64,000 bases of DNA from Nostoc sp. DedSLP01 (GTDB lineage Bacteria > Cyanobacteriota > Cyanobacteriia > Cyanobacteriales > Nostocaceae): contig JAVRCJ020000005.1 in assembly GCA_034530875.2 (NCBI GenBank), forward strand, positions 96,001-160,000, read 5' to 3'. Made by a program: the position numbers and the translations under genes. The first letter of the stretch is position 1. Each line of letters begins with the position of its first letter. The notes beneath the pieces are model-generated. The model was given only the letters and a program-made list of their open reading frames with translations. It had not been told where the DNA came from and made no database searches. Shown here piece after piece: positions 29,189 through 43,550 of the stretch.

Positions 29189-30424
29189 ATGTTTGGAAGT
29201 AAAAATTCCTCAAAATTATCTTTGAAGACAGATGATTGGGCATCCTCATCTTTCAATAAATCCCAAGAATTAGTATCTCTTGTTAATAATTCAAATTCTT
29301 TTGATTCTGAGGTTCCGACTTTTAGTAGTAAGAGTTCTTCACTACCACAAGAGTCTGCGGTGGTGTCAGCAAATCCCAATCCGAATCCTTACTTAACCAG
29401 TGCAGCGATTGTCCCCGATTTTAATGGTGATGGCAAAACAGATAAACTTTGGGTTAATACCCAAACTGGTGAAATTATTGTTCGCCTAATGGATGGAACC
29501 AGAGTTATCGAACAGGGTTCTTTGGGTCAATTCGATCTAAACTCTTGGACTTATAATATTGCCGATTTCAACGCTGATGGCAAGACAGACTTCCTTTTGC
29601 GTAATCAAGTAACTGGTGAGAATAGTATTGTATTAATGGATGGTACAAGAGTTGCTAATGCAGCTTCTTTAACCAACGTTGATGCAGCTTGGACTTCTAA
29701 AATTGGCGATTTCGATGGCGATCGCAAAACCGATATTTTTTGGCATAACAATCAAACTGGCGAAAATGCGATTTGGTTAGTCCAAGATACAACAGTTGTA
29801 AATGCAACTGTTCTAGACACAAAAGACCCAGCGCTAACTGCTAGCATTGTTGATTTCGATGCCAACGGCAAGAGTGACATCTTCTGGCGCAATGAGACAA
29901 CCGGCGAGAACAGCGTTTGGTTTATGGATGGTGTTCAAAAGAGTGAGTTTAGCCTGCAATCACAAGAAGCAGGCTGGACTTATCAAGTCGGCGATTTCAA
30001 CGGTGACCTATGCACTGACCTGCTGTGGAGAAAGGCCGAAACAGGTGAAGCCAAGGTTTGGACAGTCAGAGGTATCTTAGTCACAGAAGGTGCTTTGGGA
30101 ACAAAAGACTCTTCTTGGACTTCTCAAATTGGTGATTTCAATGGTGATGGTAAGACCGACATCTTCTGGCACAATGGAACCACAGGTGAGAACACTGCTT
30201 GGTTGATGGATGGTACAAACGTTGCAACTGAAGCCTTCCTACCGAGCAATAGTGCATCTCTAACCCCATCCCTTGGCGATTACAATGGTGATGGCAAGAC
30301 CGACATCTACTGGCGCGATCAAGCAACAGCCGCAGACAACATCTGGACTATCGATGGCACAACCGCTGTTGAGACTCCGATCGGCGACGCAGATAAGCTG
30401 GGCCCAGAGTGGTATACGTTCTAA
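29189..30424 (+). CDS. FG-GAP/VCBS repeat beta-propeller protein
   Basis: Seven repeats of DF(N/D)GDGKTD(I/L)FWxN..TGEN..W.MDG. Confidence 0.9.
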   Translation: MFGSKNSSKLSLKTDDWASSSFNKSQELVSLVNNSNSFDSEVPTFSSKSSSLPQESAVVSANPNPNPYLTSAAIVPDFNGDGKTDKLWVNTQTGEIIVRLMDGTRVIEQGSLGQFDLNSWTYNIADFNADGKTDFLLRNQVTGENSIVLMDGTRVANAASLTNVDAAWTSKIGDFDGDRKTDIFWHNNQTGENAIWLVQDTTVVNATVLDTKDPALTASIVDFDANGKSDIFWRNETTGENSVWFMDGVQKSEFSLQSQEAGWTYQVGDFNGDLCTDLLWRKAETGEAKVWTVRGILVTEGALGTKDSSWTSQIGDFNGDGKTDIFWHNGTTGENTAWLMDGTNVATEAFLPSNSASLTPSLGDYNGDGKTDIYWRDQATAADNIWTIDGTTAVETPIGDADKLGPEWYTF

Positions 30425-30425
30425 A

Positions 30426-30605
30426 GAATTCTGAATTCTGAATTCTGAATTCTGAATTCTGAAGTGAGGACACAGGGGCATTGGGTATGGGGAGATGGGG
30501 GAGTAAGGGAAGAGAGGGGAGTGTGGGGGGAAAGATTTCTTCCCCATCCTCCCACACCCCCCACACCTCCCCATACCCAATGCCCCATGCCCCATGCCCC
30601 ATGCC
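30426..30605. repeat. STRR tract (GAATTCT x5), 20-bp perfect inverted repeat and TGCCCCA repeats between convergent genes
   Basis: GGGGCATTGGGTATGGGGAG (30475-94) / CTCCCCATACCCAATGCCCC (30567-86); probable bidirectional terminator. Confidence 0.8.
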
Positions 30606-31392: not shown

Positions 31393-31992
31393 TTAAGCTC
31401 TCGACTGTAACTGTTGGAGAAAGTTCCGCAATAGCTGTTTTCCTGATGTTGTCAACACGCTCTCTGGATGAAACTGGACACCCTCAATCTGAGGATAGTT
31501 CCGGTGTCGTACTCCCATAATTGTGCCATCTTCAACCCAAGCGGTGATTTCTAGCACATCAGGGCAGGTTTCGCGTTCGATGACTAAACTATGATACCTG
31601 GTAGCGGTAAGCGGATTTTCTAATCCTTGGAAAACTCCCACCCCTGTATGAGACACCTGAGAAGTTTTGCCATGCATCAACTCTGGAGCAGAGACTATTT
31701 TACCACCGAACACTTGACCGATACTTTGATGCCCTAAACAGACGCCTAAAATTGGCAACTCTTGTCCTAGTTGCTCAATTAACTCTAGAGAAATACCCGC
31801 ATCTTCTGGGCGGCCAGGGCCGGGAGAAATAACCACAGCTTGGGGCTTTAATGCCCGAATTTCATCTATAGATATTTTGTCGTTACGAAAAACTTTAATA
31901 TCAGCTGCTACTGGGAACTCGGCTGCCAACTCTCCCAGATACTGCACCAGATTATATGTAAAACTATCGTAGTTATCAATGACTATCAACAT
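31393..31992 (-). CDS. trpG: Anthranilate/aminodeoxychorismate synthase component II (glutamine amidotransferase)
   Basis: [28 protein letters not shown] and QFHPES motifs; start set at ATG 31992. Confidence 0.95.
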
Positions 31993-32115
31993 AAATAAGG
32001 AAAAAATTATAGGTTGTAAGTGACAGATAGACAACTGTCATCGACTACAAAGGTAGGATGTAGGAGCAGCTACTTGATTTGAGAAAGCATCTAGCCAATA
32101 AATCGGGAATTTGGC

Positions 32116-32148
32116 GCGATGGGCTACGCCCCGCCGGATTGCGATCGC
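32116..32148 (+). repeat. Tiny repeat attached to a HIP1 site (SDR-type)
   Basis: GCGAT-GGGCTACGCCCCGCCGGATT-GCGATCGC; related copies at 33614-33645 (rc), 43603-43624, 46605-46668 (rc) and 48036-48056 (rc). Confidence 0.75.
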
Positions 32149-32227
32149 ATTGTGTGATTTAGAATTTTCAATCCTCAGGAATCGCTGGGCAATACCTGCG
32201 GTGTTTGCTAGGGTACAGCGATCGCAT

Positions 32228-32683
32228 CTACAAAGTCGATATAATTAACGCCACCAGAGGAGGAAGCAACAATGTAGCAGCTACTAGCACTGCTACTAAA
32301 GCTGAAACCAGCACTGCACCAGCAGCACAATCTTTGGCGACTTTTGCCAGTTCGTGGTATGTCTGCTTAACTGTCAAGTCAACAATAGACTCGATCGCTG
32401 TATTCAGCAACTCTAACGCCAAAACTAAACCGCTAGTGATGCCAATTACTGAGATTTCTACTGGCTTTAGATGCAAATAAACGCTTAAAGCGATGGCTAA
32501 AGCACACACACTCGTGTGAATGCGAAAATTACGTTGAGTTTGAAAGCTATAAGTGATTCCAGCCCAGGCATACTTAAAGCTAACAAATAAATTAGAAGCA
32601 ACCTTCCACGAAAATTCTCGTTCGTTGTTCACGATTGTTGGTAACGAGGTGGCTGTTGGTGGTGGAGAAATTTTTTGGGACAT
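32228..32683 (-). CDS. dgkA: Prokaryotic diacylglycerol/undecaprenol kinase family protein
   Basis: SFKYAWAG, QRNFRIH, ELLNTAIESIVD and AKDCAAGAVL motifs. Confidence 0.92.
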   Translation of the reverse strand: MSQKISPPPTATSLPTIVNNEREFSWKVASNLFVSFKYAWAGITYSFQTQRNFRIHTSVCALAIALSVYLHLKPVEISVIGITSGLVLALELLNTAIESIVDLTVKQTYHELAKVAKDCAAGAVLVSALVAVLVAATLLLPPLVALIISTL

Positions 32684-32834
32684 AGGCTTAAAAATACAAA
32701 AACACAGTTGTTACAGTGCGAATTTTGCCGATATTTCTAGAGTAATTAACTTTGAGGCAATATTTAAGCAATTTTCCATAGAGGTATTATAAAAGTATTA
32801 CCCAAAATTTACACCAAAGTATGACTCATTAGTG

Positions 32835-33368
32835 CTATTGCTTGTCAATAGCAATACCTATCGCCGTCAGCAATTTTACTTGCTGTTCTAACATTCGCTC
32901 TAAACTTTCTTCGTCAGGATGATCCCAGCCCAACAGATGCAATAAACCGTGAGCAGCTAACCAGGCCAGCTCGGTTGGTAAATCGTGTCCCTGCTGTTGG
33001 GCTTGACGTTGTGCGGTATCTACAGACACAATAATATCGCCTAGATATAACGGTACAGAAGCAAGCATTTCTTCGCTTTGAGGAAAATCTACCTCCAAAG
33101 CAGCAAAAGCTAATACGTCTGTGGGCTGATTTTTTTGACGATACTGGGCATTTAGTTCCTGAATTTGCGAGTCATCTGTCAAACGCAGCCCAATCTCATA
33201 ACCTGACGCTGGTGGAATGTGAGGGTGAAGTATTTCCAACCAGCAATTAAACCACTCTTCCCAAGTTTCAGATGTAATTCGAGGATGAGTGTCGCTAAAA
33301 TTTACCGACGTTGTTGGCGACAACTCGTCAAAATAATTTTCCACATACAATTCAACTCCCAGAACCAC
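32835..33368 (-). CDS. ybeY: rRNA maturation endoribonuclease YbeY
   Basis: LNAQYR...PTDVLAF, LGDIIVS and HGLLHLLGWDH motifs. Confidence 0.96.
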   Translation of the reverse strand: MVLGVELYVENYFDELSPTTSVNFSDTHPRITSETWEEWFNCWLEILHPHIPPASGYEIGLRLTDDSQIQELNAQYRQKNQPTDVLAFAALEVDFPQSEEMLASVPLYLGDIIVSVDTAQRQAQQQGHDLPTELAWLAAHGLLHLLGWDHPDEESLERMLEQQVKLLTAIGIAIDKQ

Positions 33369-33726: not shown

Positions 33727-34849
33727 TTAAGCAGGAGTATTTTCCACTAGCTTATTTTCTTGTCGCAGATAAGCTTGGATGAAGGCATCAAGTTCGCCAT
33801 TCATCACATCTGTAATCCCTGTTGTTTCCGTATTTGTACGTAAATCTTTCACCATTTGGTAAGGATGAAACACATAGTTCCGAATTTGGTTACCCCAGGA
33901 GGCTTCCACCATATCGCCACGAATTTGGGCAATTTCTTGGGCGCGTTGTTCTTGGGCAATAACTAGTAGTTTTGCTTTGAGTCGAGCGAGAGCTTTTTCT
34001 TTATTTTGCAGCTGCGATCGCTCTTCTGTACAACGCACGGCAATTCCTGTAGGCAGGTGAACAACCCGTACAGCCGTTTCTACTTTGTTGACGTTCTGTC
34101 CGCCTTTACCACCAGAGCGAGTTGTGGTGATTTCCAAATCTTTCTCTGGAATATCCAATTGCACAGAATCATCTATTTGGGGCATTACTTCCACCCCTGC
34201 AAAACTAGTTTGTCGCTTGCCATTGGCATTAAACGGCGAAATTCTCACCAAGCGGTGCGTGCCTGTTTCCGACCGCAAGTAACCGTAAGCATAGCGACCA
34301 GTAATTTCTAGGGTTGCCGATTTAATTCCCGCTTCATCACCCTCTGACTCTTCAGCTAAAGTTACCTTGTAGCCGTGAGCTTCAGCCCAGCGCGTGTACA
34401 TACGCATCAGCATAAATGCCCAGTCTTGGGCATCTGTACCACCAGCACCAGCATTAATTGTCAGTACAGCACCTTCAGCATCATAAGGGCCGGAAAGTAA
34501 CTGTTGTAACTCCCACTGGTCAAGGTCGCGATTCAGTTGAGTGATGGTAGATTCCGCTTCTTGCAATAGTGCTTCGTCGGTTTCTAACTCCAACAGTTCG
34601 ACAACTGCCTTAGTATCTTCCAGACTGCTTTGCCACTGTTCGTATTGCTGGAGGTGGCTTTTTAAGTCGTTGAGTTCTTGCAGCGTTTTTTGGGCTTCGG
34701 GTTGATTATTCCAAAATTCTGGTTGGGCAGATATTTGTTCTAGGTCTTGAATTTTAGCTGTCAGTGCAGGTACGTCAAAGATAGTCCTGGGTCTTACCCA
34801 GGCGGCTAGACAACGTTTCAATTTCGCGTTTGAGTTCTAAAACTTCCAT
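33727..34849 (-). CDS. prfB: Peptide chain release factor 2, expressed by +1 programmed ribosomal frameshift after codon 24
   Basis: ATG 34849 gives [24 protein letters not shown] then CTT-TGA-C; the +1 frame continues DVPALTAK... with GAGGTDA, SPF and GGQ motifs. Confidence 0.97.
34774..34788 (-). promoter_or_regulatory. prfB +1 frameshift cassette
   Basis: AGGA-C-TAT-CTT-TGA-C: internal SD-like AGGA plus the slippery CTT TGA C. Confidence 0.93.
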
Positions 34850-34998: not shown

Positions 34999-36109
34999 TT
35001 ATTTGCTGACCGCAGTGGTTTGATTTTGTTGTATGGAGGCTTTGAGAAACAAATCGATTTCACCGTCCAAAACGTCTGTCACAGCAGTAGTTTCAAGTTT
35101 GGTACACAGATCCTTTACTTTTTTATAAGGATGTAAAACATATTCTCTAATGAGCTTTTTGGATAAAGATTTTATTTGCCAGGGTTGAATTTCGTTAACT
35201 TGCTGGACACCTTGAGCTAGTGCGATCGCCAACAGTTTACTCTTGAGAATAGCTAAACCTTTCTCTTTGCTTTCTAGCTGACGCCGCTCTTGGTTGCAAA
35301 ATACACTAATCCCAGTAGGAATGTGCAACACTCGCACCCATGTTTCTGGACGGTTGACACTACCTTGTGGGCGTGGCACAGTAATTTCCAAATCTTTTTC
35401 TGGAATCTCAAACTCCACAGACTTATCCAGAATTGGGCTAACTTCTACAGTAGCTTGGTAAGTATATCTCCTGCCATTGCCACGAACAGGAGAAATCCGC
35501 ACTATTTTTGTATGAGTTCCTTGTTCCGATTTTAGTCAGCCATAGGCATAACGCCCTGTAATTTCTAGGGCATAACTAATGGTATCTTTATCCCTATCAT
35601 TAATATCTAGAAAACATACCTGATGTAAGTGACTTAACCCCCACAAATAATACATTCGTAATAACATAGATGACCAATTTTGGGTTTCTATGTCACTAAC
35701 TTTAGCAGTAATAGTTACTAATGCTCCCTTTGAATTGTAGGGATTAGACAATAACTGCTTTATTTCTGGTGTTTCGATTTCTTGCTGGAGTTGAGCTAAG
35801 TTAATTTGAGTCTCTTGCAGTAATTGCTCGTCAACTAATGATTCCAAAAGTTCTAGAGCAGCCTTGATATCTTTTAAGATAGAGAGCGATCGCTGATATT
35901 GTTCCTGCCTTCTAGATATAAGATATTTGATTTTCTCAGACGTCTGATGAGCAGTAGCTAGATTTTCCCAAAAAGCCGTTTTAGCGATTAGCTGATTTAG
36001 GTAGTGAATTATTCCAGTAAAATATCGCAGGTCAAAGACAGTCCTCTGTTTTGCCCAAGATATTCGACAACCTTTCTACTTCTATTTTGAAATTTAACAG
36101 TTCGAGCAT
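34999..36109 (-). pseudogene. Full-length RF2 paralogue lacking GGQ/SPF, with retained +1 frameshift site and one in-frame TGA (pseudogene or recoded gene)
   Basis: ATG 36109 gives 25 codons, then GAGGAC-TGT-CTT-TGA-C (CTTTGAC at 36037-36031); the +1 frame is open to TGA at 35536-35538 and continues in frame to 34999; collinear with prfB throughout ([46 protein letters not shown]). Confidence 0.9.
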
Positions 36110-36163: not shown

Positions 36164-36201
36164 AAAAAAACCGTGGTTGAATTTTTAGCAACCACGGTTT
36201 T
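36164..36201 (-). terminator. Rho-independent terminator of the Bax inhibitor-1 gene
   Basis: AAAACCGTGGTTG / CAACCACGGTTTT stem with a T7 tract on the minus strand. Confidence 0.85.
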
Positions 36202-36242: not shown

Positions 36243-36971
36243 TTAATCGCGGCCATTAAGGGCAATTAGCAACCGCAAAATAAAGATGAATAGGTTGATG
36301 TAAGTCAGGTACATCGATAAAGCAGCAGGCAAATATTGATCGTTACTGTAAGTGCGCGGCAAGATATAAAAATCAACAACTGAAGCGCCAACAAACAGAA
36401 ACACGCCCAAACCTGAGATAGCGATTTCTAACCAAGATGGTGTATAAACACCAAATAAGCTAAATGCAAATTGCGTCAGGCAGACAACCACCAAGGCAAT
36501 GATACCGAGATTGATGGTTTTCGTCAAAGCCATGCCATCTTGTTCGGAAAGATTTGAACCAATTTGACGGGCTGCTATGAAGGTGACGCCACAACCAAGG
36601 GCAGCTAAACCAATGCCTTGAATGCCAACGCCTTGAGTTCTCAAGGCGAGGAACACCAAACCACTGAGAGTGTATCCAGATAAAAGGCTGTAGGTTGCTA
36701 GCAGGGGTAATGCCAAACCCTTGTTACCTTTTTCAGCAACATTTTGGGCAACAAAGAACAGAATCAACTCCAAAATCACCGCACCAATGAAGGTAGGAAA
36801 GAATATTCCGGGATTAGTACGGATAATTCCCAAACCTCCGTATGTTCCCAATGCAGTTATTACCAGCCCGCCACCGACGTAGGGGAGGGCGTTAGCAATC
36901 ACATTGGGGCCGACGAGTGCGTGAGATTTCGCCTCACGGATAGCTTCACGAAAATTGCTGGTATTGCTCAT
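36243..36971 (-). CDS. Bax inhibitor-1 / YccA family membrane protein
   Basis: Seven TM helices; C-terminal AALSMYLTYINLFIFILRLL. Confidence 0.92.
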   Translation of the reverse strand: MSNTSNFREAIREAKSHALVGPNVIANALPYVGGGLVITALGTYGGLGIIRTNPGIFFPTFIGAVILELILFFVAQNVAEKGNKGLALPLLATYSLLSGYTLSGLVFLALRTQGVGIQGIGLAALGCGVTFIAARQIGSNLSEQDGMALTKTINLGIIALVVVCLTQFAFSLFGVYTPSWLEIAISGLGVFLFVGASVVDFYILPRTYSNDQYLPAALSMYLTYINLFIFILRLLIALNGRD

Positions 36972-41527: not shown

Positions 41528-42148
41528 ATGATGAAAGCTGAAGATATCATGACCAAAAACGTGGTTACCATCCGCGGTTCGGCAACTGTTGCAGAAGCGG
41601 TGGGGCTGATGAAAGAAAAAAAATTGCGGGCGCTGGTTGTGGATCGTCGCTATGACAATGATGCTTATGGCATTGTTACAGAAACAGATGTTGTTTATAA
41701 GGTAATAGCTTACGGTAAAGATCCAAAGCAAGTGCGAGTTTACGAAATTATGAGTAAGCCTTGCATTGTGGTAAACCCCGATTTGGGTGTGGAATATGTA
41801 GCCAGGTTATTTGCTAACACTGGTATCCATAGAGCGCCTGTGATTCAAGGTAAACTGTTGGGAATTATCTCAATTACCGACATTTTGACCAAAAGCGACT
41901 TTGTGGAAGCGCCAAAAGCACTATTGCTAGAGGAGAGAATTCAAAAAGCTATCGAACAGGCTCGTGCCATTTGCACCGAACAAGGTGCTTATTCTAAAGC
42001 CTGTGCAGCTGCTTGGGATGAGGTAGAAGAACTGCAAGCAGAAGCAGCTCATCAAAAAGCTGAGGGTATGGTGTCAGCCAAAGGTAGTTTTGAGAAATAT
42101 TGCAAGGAAAACCCAGATGCACCAGAATGTCGAAATTATCATCCGTAA
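41528..42148 (+). CDS. CBS-pair-CP12 fusion protein
   Basis: Two CBS domains, then CP12 with C..C, AWDEVEEL and YCKENPDAPECR; RBS AGGAG before ATG 41528. Confidence 0.92.
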   Translation: MMKAEDIMTKNVVTIRGSATVAEAVGLMKEKKLRALVVDRRYDNDAYGIVTETDVVYKVIAYGKDPKQVRVYEIMSKPCIVVNPDLGVEYVARLFANTGIHRAPVIQGKLLGIISITDILTKSDFVEAPKALLLEERIQKAIEQARAICTEQGAYSKACAAAWDEVEELQAEAAHQKAEGMVSAKGSFEKYCKENPDAPECRNYHP

Positions 42149-42172
42149 TTGAAGTGGGGCATTGGGCAAACA

Positions 42173-42359
42173 GGGAGTGTGGGAGGTGTGGGAGGAGAGG
42201 GAGGTGTGGGAGGTGTGGGAAGCATAAATTCTCTTTCTTCCCTCACTTCCCCCATCTCCCCATCTCCCCACACTCCCCACACCTCCCCATCTCCCCACAC
42301 TCCCCACACTCCCCACACTCCCCACACTCCCCACACCTCCCCATCTCCCCATCTCCCTC
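42173..42359. repeat. G-rich/C-rich short tandem repeats (GGGAGGTGT / CCCCACACT, CCCCATCT) between convergent genes
   Basis: Directly visible 8-9-nt tandem units forming imperfect inverted arms. Confidence 0.85.
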
Positions 42360-42362
42360 ATT

Positions 42363-43550
42363 TTACCGATTTGCGACTCGCATCAATAAAAAGACACCTA
42401 CTCCTAGAAAAATAAAGTTGGGTAACCAAGCTCCCATAAAGGGAGAGAGGATGCCTGTTTGTGCGATCGCGCCACTAATAAAGAAAATTAAGTAATAGGA
42501 AAAAATAACTATAACGCTAATCCCAAAACTGGTGCCTCTGCCTGTGCGCTGGGGTATGCTTCCCATTGCAGCGCCGACTAAGCCAAAAACTACGCACACA
42601 AAGGGCAAGGAGATTTTTTGTTGAATCCTGACTTCCAGTTTACGAATTTTTTGGCGATCGCCGCCCAAGCGTTCCACTTCTAATTGATCTAGTCCTTCAG
42701 AAATATTCATTTCGTCGTAGTCGCGGCTTTTTTCTGCCAAAATTAATGGCGTCCGGGGTAGTTGCAGTTGTTGCTGTTCAAACCTGACGATGTTGCGATA
42801 AGAGCGATCGGCTGCGACAAAATAGATTGTGCCGTTGTAAAAATCCCAAACATTTCGAGAAGCATTCCACTGGGCGGATTCTGATACCACAATTTGATTC
42901 AGACCTTTAGTTGAACGATCTATAATTGTCAAACCTGTCATACGCTTACCATCAAATTGGTCGGCGTAAAACAAGCGCGACAATATCCTATTTTTAGTGC
43001 CATCTGGCTGGACAACATCCTGATATTCAGGATAAAAAATATTTTGCTGTTTAAAAGTTGGCTTGTCTGATTTGAGGGCTTTATCCAGAGTCATCGCCGC
43101 TTGGTAATTTGCTGCTGGCGCTATGTGTTCGTTAAATACAAATGTCATTCCTGTGACCAGAAGACTTAATATCACAGCAGGTAGCACCATACGATAAACG
43201 CTGACGCCACAACCACGCAAAGCTATGAGTTCGCTTTCGCTGGAAAGACGACTGTAAGTCATCAGAGTAGCCAGCAACGTGGACATGGGGAAGGCTAAAA
43301 CAACAAAGTTGGGAAACTTTAATAAAAAAACCTGAATGGCAATGTCTATAGGTAGCCCAGATTCAACTACTTTTCTGACTAAATCGAATACAGCATCAAT
43401 GGTGACACCGATTGAAGAGAAAGCTCCGACACCAAAGAAAAACGGTGGCAATAATTCGCTGCTCAGATAACGATCCATAATCGTAAAAGGTAGCAGTGAA
43501 TGCAAACTGTAGAAAGATGTAACTTTCTTTGATATCATAAGCAACTGCAA
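42363..43550 (-). CDS. LptF/LptG family LPS export permease
   Basis: MDRYL, LSSESELIALRGCGVS, QKISLPF and AWLPN motifs; downstream of lptB. Confidence 0.93.
   Translation of the reverse strand: MQLLMISKKVTSFYSLHSLLPFTIMDRYLSSELLPPFFFGVGAFSSIGVTIDAVFDLVRKVVESGLPIDIAIQVFLLKFPNFVVLAFPMSTLLATLMTYSRLSSESELIALRGCGVSVYRMVLPAVILSLLVTGMTFVFNEHIAPAANYQAAMTLDKALKSDKPTFKQQNIFYPEYQDVVQPDGTKNRILSRLFYADQFDGKRMTGLTIIDRSTKGLNQIVVSESAQWNASRNVWDFYNGTIYFVAADRSYRNIVRFEQQQLQLPRTPLILAEKSRDYDEMNISEGLDQLEVERLGGDRQKIRKLEVRIQQKISLPFVCVVFGLVGAAMGSIPQRTGRGTSFGISVIVIFSYYLIFFISGAIAQTGILSPFMGAWLPNFIFLGVGVFLLMRVANR

Follow-up and report, generated by a model that had tools for sequence, protein, structure and literature searches.

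Gene content at the prfB locus

The window, that is, the whole 64,000-nt stretch of Nostoc sp. DedSLP01 DNA analysed here, carries two RF2-like genes in tandem on the minus strand, the canonical prfB and a paralogue. The features of the locus are the following:

36243..36971, minus strand: gene for a Bax inhibitor-1 (BI-1) family membrane protein (Pfam PF01027), the conserved upstream neighbour
36164..36201, minus strand: terminator-like hairpin (13-bp stem, 9-nt loop) plus U-run, separating the paralogue from the BI-1 gene (folding z -5.2)
36109-34999, minus strand: RF2 paralogue, whole gene, 369 codons in total, with its ATG at 36109
36032..36109, minus strand: 0-frame leader of the paralogue, from the ATG through 25 codons to the first TGA; codons 24-25 are invariant in 77/77 genus copies
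36031..36046, minus strand: prfB-type +1 frameshift cassette, with SD-like GAGGA, CTT-T slip site, TGA and C (motif as in PMC12421855)
34999..36033, minus strand: +1-frame body of the paralogue, 344 codons ending in TAA, with RF2 fold and Pfam PCRF and RF-1 domains
35536..35538, minus strand: the second UGA, in frame at codon 191 and with C as the next base, a putative read-through site; the same TGA occurs in 32/79 genus copies, with selection downstream
35485..35493, minus strand: SPV where RF2 has its stop-recognition tripeptide SPF (from the alignment to RF2); head type A
35350..35379, minus strand: shortened catalytic loop without GGQ (GGQ in 2/108 copies)
33727..34849, minus strand: the canonical RF2 gene prfB, whose own CTT-TGA-C frameshift lies at codon 24 (TIGR00020, 486.5 bits; cut-off 370)

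The body of the paralogue shares 47% identity with the adjacent prfB (159/341, E 9e-103), which together with the cassette at the homologous codon excludes a chance resemblance to RF2. Only the paralogue, prfB and prfA gave full-length RF-type matches in this genome, and the nearest named relatives were Nostoc records. The sequence-only reading had described an RF2-like frame of 369 codons upstream of prfB and in the same orientation, with an ATG, 25 codons, GAGGA and CTT-TGA-C at codon 25 versus 24, and all of this was confirmed. It had also taken the +1 frame to be collinear with RF2 and open through to the C-terminus; the collinearity stands, but the frame is interrupted by the in-frame TGA at codon 191. 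That gene callers fragment the gene is true of the window allele, for which a 157-aa piece is present among the called proteins, but intact alleles elsewhere are annotated full length (375-388 aa) by NCBI, as 'PCRF domain-containing protein'.

Downstream of prfB and in the same orientation are genes for ybeY, a diacylglycerol kinase and a class-I glutamine amidotransferase (31393-33368, minus strand), an ordinary conserved cluster. Short tandem-repeat tracts with spurious low-complexity ORFs were found at 42074-42495 and 30260-30602 of the window, and are of a kind typical of Nostoc intergenic repeats.

Distribution, synteny and phylogeny of the paralogue

The genus sample comprised 127 genomes, and loci were fetched from 95 of them. 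A near-full-length copy was found in 79 of these loci, a broken or partial one in 10, and no trace within the fetched stretch in 6, so that the paralogue is broken or missing in 16/95. The 32 genomes outside this locus count include several with remnants. Two of the 79 copies have N-terminal lesions, and the other 77 are the basis of most counts below. A family search of 389 genomes (E at most 1e-118, a cut-off that more divergent copies may escape) detected a copy in 31 of the 262 genomes of the host family outside the genus, in 8 genera, two of these genomes having two tandem copies. At the order level (a sample of 251 genomes), two matches were present in 3 of the 236 genomes outside the host family. 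One of the three, G589, was rejected as a carrier, both of its matches being ordinary RF2s; the other two contain a GGQ-less paralogue with a CTT-TAA-C cassette, in one case tandem to prfB and in the other located elsewhere. Altogether, 9 genera within the host family were found to have the paralogue, as were 2 genomes from beyond it.

The gene order BI-1, paralogue, prfB, which had been proposed as a check, holds across the genus, with prfB directly downstream in 77/79 copies of the fetched loci. In four outgroup genomes without the paralogue BI-1 adjoins prfB, from which we infer that a duplication inserted the paralogue between them. The 108 aligned paralogue copies form one clade. Eleven of the best 150 cluster representatives lack GGQ, ten of them inside the paralogue clade and one sister to it. 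A 47-row IQ-TREE phylogeny grouped 22 paralogues (support 100/99; bootstrap not fully converged) among the RF2s of cyanobacteria, whose own branching was unresolved. The paralogues are accordingly a clade nested in cyanobacterial RF2, in a tree whose rows do not include the plant homologue PrfB3, and the sequences point to an old tandem duplicate of cyanobacterial prfB.

Transcription signals

The hairpin upstream of the paralogue is partly conserved before 76 orthologues. Because this terminator-like structure follows the BI-1 gene, a separate promoter is implied in the ~55 nt before the paralogue ATG; a promoter scan gave nothing above chance (4 vs 4.3 expected). In four RNA-seq runs, all of one study, 6% of the words were present, and the contigs derived from a relative at ~88% identity; as they are relative-derived and span divergent intergenic DNA, these contigs may be DNA. 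Regarding a link to the TrcR/trn translational-stress regulon, PMC10272220 does not use the terms 'release factor' or 'prfB' in its main text, and 'release factor' is absent from PMC8421152.

A 21-nt in-frame insertion (7 residues), which leaves the frame unbroken, was observed at a GCGATCGC (HIP1) site (window ~35222-35229) in 40/77 genus copies and 1/31 others, and also in the contigs of the RNA runs. It resembles SDR5, a small mobile repeat of Nostoc.

Conservation of the frameshift cassette

Codons 24-25 are TGT CTT in 77/77 genus copies, whereas other leader Leu codons vary synonymously, so the cassette is conserved even at synonymous sites. Codon 26 is TGA in 72 of the 77 copies, TAA in 3 and TAG in 2. 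A TAG cassette was also found in 5 copies of genus g75, where both tandem paralogue pairs upstream of prfB (L182-L187, L196) contain one TAG-C and one TGA-C cassette each, and both outside-family copies have TAA. Among prfB motifs, TAG at the frameshift stop is reported for 0 of 8,164 (PMC12421855).

In prfB the cassette ties synthesis inversely to RF2 activity, and overexpressed active RF2 is toxic (PMC12421855, PMC5009743). The paralogue had been proposed to be wired to RF2 in the same way; conservation of the cassette supports the proposal, but strict wiring is weakened by the TAA and TAG cassettes. With such stops in some copies, the cassette may serve to attenuate expression in general instead of sensing RF2.

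Loss of catalytic motifs and predicted structure

The motif losses claimed for the window allele were all verified: GGQ is gone, in a loop 4 residues shorter than that of RF2, SPF is replaced by SPV, and the GAGG tip of alpha-5 is altered. In RF2 this tip reads U1, and the switch-loop Trp has a functional role. Trp was found at the switch-loop column in 0/108 paralogue copies, and GGQ is kept in 2/108. Loss of SPF could not be extended to the family, as the tripeptide is retained in 53/108 copies. Peptidyl-tRNA hydrolysis at UGA and UAA is predicted to be absent from the paralogue. The two GGQ-bearing copies (L011:1480-2571 and L101:405-1475) have a full-length loop and a third head type; they may represent ancestral retention or regain, and catalytic activity is possible for them. 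N-terminal, head and loop segments occur as discrete types that recombine and recur across genera.

With the TIGR00020 profile, the +1-frame body of the paralogue scored 257.7 bits, under the curated cut-off of 370, compared with 486.5 for the prfB body; with TIGR03072 (PrfH) it scored 33.9 bits against a cut-off of 166.65. AlphaFold2 returned the RF2 fold with a mean pLDDT of 84 from a mixed alignment whose RF2 rows bias the model, and a pLDDT of 49 from an alignment of 25 paralogues alone. The best Foldseek match of the model built with RF2 rows was E. coli RF2. On these sequence tests the paralogue is not RF2 by membership, since GGQ, SPF and the TIGR00020 cut-off fail while the fold and the cassette are retained.

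Evidence of selection on both sides of the second stop

Codon models gave omega values below 1 in every subset (range 0.33-0.56; 2dL 77, 175, 113, 160, 250, 377). In the 32 TGA alleles, omega was 0.53 before and 0.38 after the stop (2dL vs omega=1: 77 and 175), in the 45 non-TGA alleles 0.49/0.44 before and after codon 191, and in the 31 other-genus copies 0.39/0.33, compared with 0.058 for prfB. Pairwise estimates agree (0.40/0.29 at dS 0.38, the dS of prfB being equal). No 25-codon omega window was clearly above 1. The claim of a conserved non-catalytic RF2 homologue under purifying selection was therefore upheld, each omega being below 1 by likelihood test.

The 60 codons straight after the second UGA show an omega of 0.38 (2dL 50 for the 32 alleles; 2dL 3.9 in a five-genome clade). 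Past the TGA, 0 nonsense codons were observed versus 50-69 expected under neutrality, an expectation inflated by the effect of recombination on tree lengths. In the five-genome clade, which includes the window, every allele has TGA and the downstream part is monophyletic (support 99), with a downstream omega of 0.41 (2dL 20.5) and 0 stops vs 7-9 expected; because this all-TGA clade is constrained downstream, refreshing from sampled intact alleles fails as an explanation. Other premature stops in the 77 genus copies number 4, each in a single copy.

The omega of the paralogue is 7-9 times that of prfB, and this, together with the 16/95 broken or missing loci, indicates that selection is weak or intermittent. 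Of the signs of decay named beforehand, dN/dS near 1 and loss of the cassette were not seen, which favours function, but loss and breakage are common. We regard it as very likely that the paralogue is a functional gene.

The second in-frame UGA

In the window allele, the context of codon 191 is GGC TGA CTA, within the PCRF domain, at a column where RF2 has Tyr. Across the 79 genus copies this codon is TGA in 32, TAC in 29, TGG in 6, TGC in 3 and another codon in 9. Since the second UGA is missing from 45/77 genus copies and from 31/31 other-genus copies, it is not required by the paralogue family. It is associated with the head type: the 37 type-A heads in the genus have 30 TGA, 6 TGG and 1 CAA, and TGA also occurs in 2 recombinants, whereas TGA or TGG was found in 0/33 type-B heads. 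Other genera contain 14 type-A-like heads with a Tyr or Cys codon and no stop. A local tree built without codon 191 placed TGA in two deep genus lineages, with the six TGG alleles nested among TGA at several points; on the prfB tree, 16 state changes were counted. Synonymous variation is lower around the second UGA, which may be due to linkage.

Among the tetranucleotides at the stops of long ORFs in this genome, TGAC is the least frequent (59/3048). No restart codon is conserved near the second UGA, as no in-frame start within 41 codons downstream is common to more than 10 of the 32 alleles; a GTG is found 12 codons after it in 8/32 alleles, including the window allele, and a TTG at +51 in 18/32. 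Nor was a convincing read-through RNA structure detected: the downstream consensus folds are the lowest in the gene (-9 to -10 kcal/mol) but weak, and start ~17 nt past the stop. Selenocysteine was rejected, with no SelA (PF03841) match in a 99.8% complete genome and no UCA anticodon among 74 tRNA calls. A suppressor tRNA was likewise rejected, there being no UCA tRNA and a normal, 5-bp anticodon stem in the housekeeping tRNA-Trp.

UGA read-through is normally a few percent, with 6% quoted for B. subtilis, and bacterial in-frame stops tend toward short-lived polymorphisms (PMC7918605), so an in-frame stop persisting across a dS of about 0.4 is unusual. We consider it likely that the second UGA is read through in this allele class, probably as Trp by the ordinary tRNA-Trp. 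The simplest reading would be near-cognate read-through of a weak UGA-C stop.

Outside the window, a tRNA cluster of genome G000 has, next to tRNA-Cys, a gene resembling tRNA-Trp whose anticodon stem is bulged (aragorn c[1849,1923]). It is probably part of a trn-type tRNA array, and could be a pseudogene or affect UGA reading. Three such pseudogenes are reported in PMC8421152.

Proposed mechanism and alternative explanations

The reading that we prefer, with a probability of about 0.5, is that the paralogue encodes an RF2-shaped, non-catalytic protein kept by selection, whose synthesis is gated by weak termination. The ribosome would shift to the +1 frame at the first UGA-C; alleles of this class would require, in addition, read-through of the second UGA-C, probably with Trp inserted. 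With two RF2-dependent escapes in series, the full-length protein would be rare and steeply induced when RF2 activity drops. The product could act as a decoy or buffer for RF2 partners, absorbing an RF2 inhibitor or trap, or could compete at the ribosomal factor site, and a decoy would avoid the toxicity of additional active RF2. Since a dead product cannot itself restore termination, such gating is easiest to understand for a protein that shields RF2 from something that disables it, or that vies with RF2 for partners. We place this decoy or competitor role a little short of even odds. The mosaic make-up of the alleles, the recurrence of allele types in different genera, the tandem copies and the many losses would fit a conflict-type gene, without proving it. 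A more specific version, which is speculative and rather unlikely, is a doubly gated sensor of termination failure, in which an inhibitor, toxin or phage factor lowers RF2, both UGA-C gates open and the fast-evolving, dead decoy shields the neighbouring RF2; under such a scheme, a tandem pair would monitor RF1 through its TAG cassette and RF2 through its TGA cassette.

Several observations could be explained otherwise. The protein could be a ribosome-independent RNA-binding or stabilising factor, with the frameshift and the second UGA only holding its level low. PrfB3 of plants is a GGQ/SPF-less RF2 recruited for an RNA role (PMC5897788), a protein that has lost the alpha-5 tip, the GGQ loop and the switch-loop Trp is not expected to be accommodated normally in the A site, and TAA and TAG cassettes are tolerated; but the variable heads and loops and the allele mosaics are unexpected with a fixed RNA target, TGA is still present in 72/77 cassettes, and PrfB3 is of separate origin (PMC3472500), making this explanation improbable. 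We give similarly little credit to a functional family in which the UGA type-A alleles yield a truncated or split product, namely an N-terminal piece of 190 aa with a C-half that is re-initiated or maintained by recombination. The usual few percent of UGA read-through (PMC7918605), the downstream GTG (8/32) and TTG (18/32), and the evident recombination, with its 16 state changes on the prfB tree, are compatible with it. Against it, the alleles have no conserved start close to the stop, the 60 post-stop codons are constrained (although in the five-genome clade 2dL is only 3.9), the stop cuts the PCRF domain, and TGG revertant-like alleles exist.

A dominant-negative termination modulator would bind stop codons and stall ribosomes or promote read-through, in positive feedback, and the second UGA would tame a toxic decoding-competent allele. 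The basic RF2-like head retained by type A, and TGA or TGG in 36/37 type-A but 0/33 type-B heads in the genus, would be expected from it; yet the 14 type-A-like heads of other genera have no stop, the association may reflect linkage, and alpha-5, the U1 reader, is altered at its tip, leaving this as an improbable explanation. Slow decay of a duplicate into a pseudogene, disabled long ago by the shared TGA, would account for the internal stop, the frequent loss and remnants, an omega far over the prfB value and the 4 stops that are private to single copies in the set of 77. However, omega is significantly below 1 in all main subsets, further stops are nearly absent at a dS (0.38) matching that of prfB, the frameshift codons are invariant and the gene persists across families, so that decay appears highly improbable.

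If the decoy role is correct, something as yet unrecognised would be attacking translation termination in Nostoc, symbionts of lichens and plants among them. The gene is also a strong candidate for long-lived, selected UGA read-through in a bacterial gene annotated as a pseudogene, and its natural TGA/TGG allele pairs are inherent controls.

Comparison with known systems

The paralogue family was not found described in the literature searched, which covered few subscription journals and no supplements and included term look-ups in PMC12421855, PMC12873609, PMC7918605 and PMC5009743. Neither a bacterial decoy of a release factor nor a cellular release-factor gene recoded twice was found in the same literature.

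The closest relative is RF2 itself (prfB; TIGR00020, PF03462 and PF00472), which is alike in fold, domain order, sequence (47% identity) and an SD-CUU-UGA-C cassette near codon 25. The paralogue differs in being without GGQ, in its altered alpha-5 tip and switch loop, in scoring below the TIGR00020 cut-off and in an omega ~8x higher; it is further dispensable, has a second in-frame UGA and in some copies a TAG cassette. PrfB3 (mtRF2b, AT3G57190) is likewise a full-length GGQ-less RF2 homologue beside a working RF2. It has lost SPF too, as has the window allele, but half of the paralogue family keeps SPF. Unlike the paralogue, PrfB3 is nuclear-encoded and arose from a land-plant plastid RF2 duplication (PMC3472500); it binds the petB 3' UTR (PMC5897788) and was set beside the paralogue by description rather than by sequence. 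By this comparison, PrfB3 is an analogue and not an orthologue.

In the account of PMC6514570, the bacterial RF2-fold proteins are only RF1, RF2, ArfB and PrfH. The specialised paralogues PrfH (RFH) and ArfB retain the catalytic Gln and are without the N-terminal domain, and PrfH is located beside rtcB (PMC6514570), whereas the paralogue lies beside BI-1 and prfB, with a full N-terminal domain and no GGQ. The baeRF-1/Dom34 proteins are catalytically dead A-site binders and resemble the paralogue in their inactivity, but have the unrelated aeRF-1 fold (PMC6514570). Whereas the bacterial RF2-fold paralogues treated there retain the catalytic Gln, the widespread cyanobacterial family has lost it and kept the RF2 frameshift, freed from autoregulation.

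For double recoding, the closest precedent appears to be the class-I release factor of Mimivirus and Megavirus, in which two internal stops are passed by frameshift and read-through, a combination termed unique to these viruses (PMC3521657). That factor is viral and of the eRF1 type, whereas the paralogue arose by duplication of a bacterial RF2 gene and no longer has GGQ.
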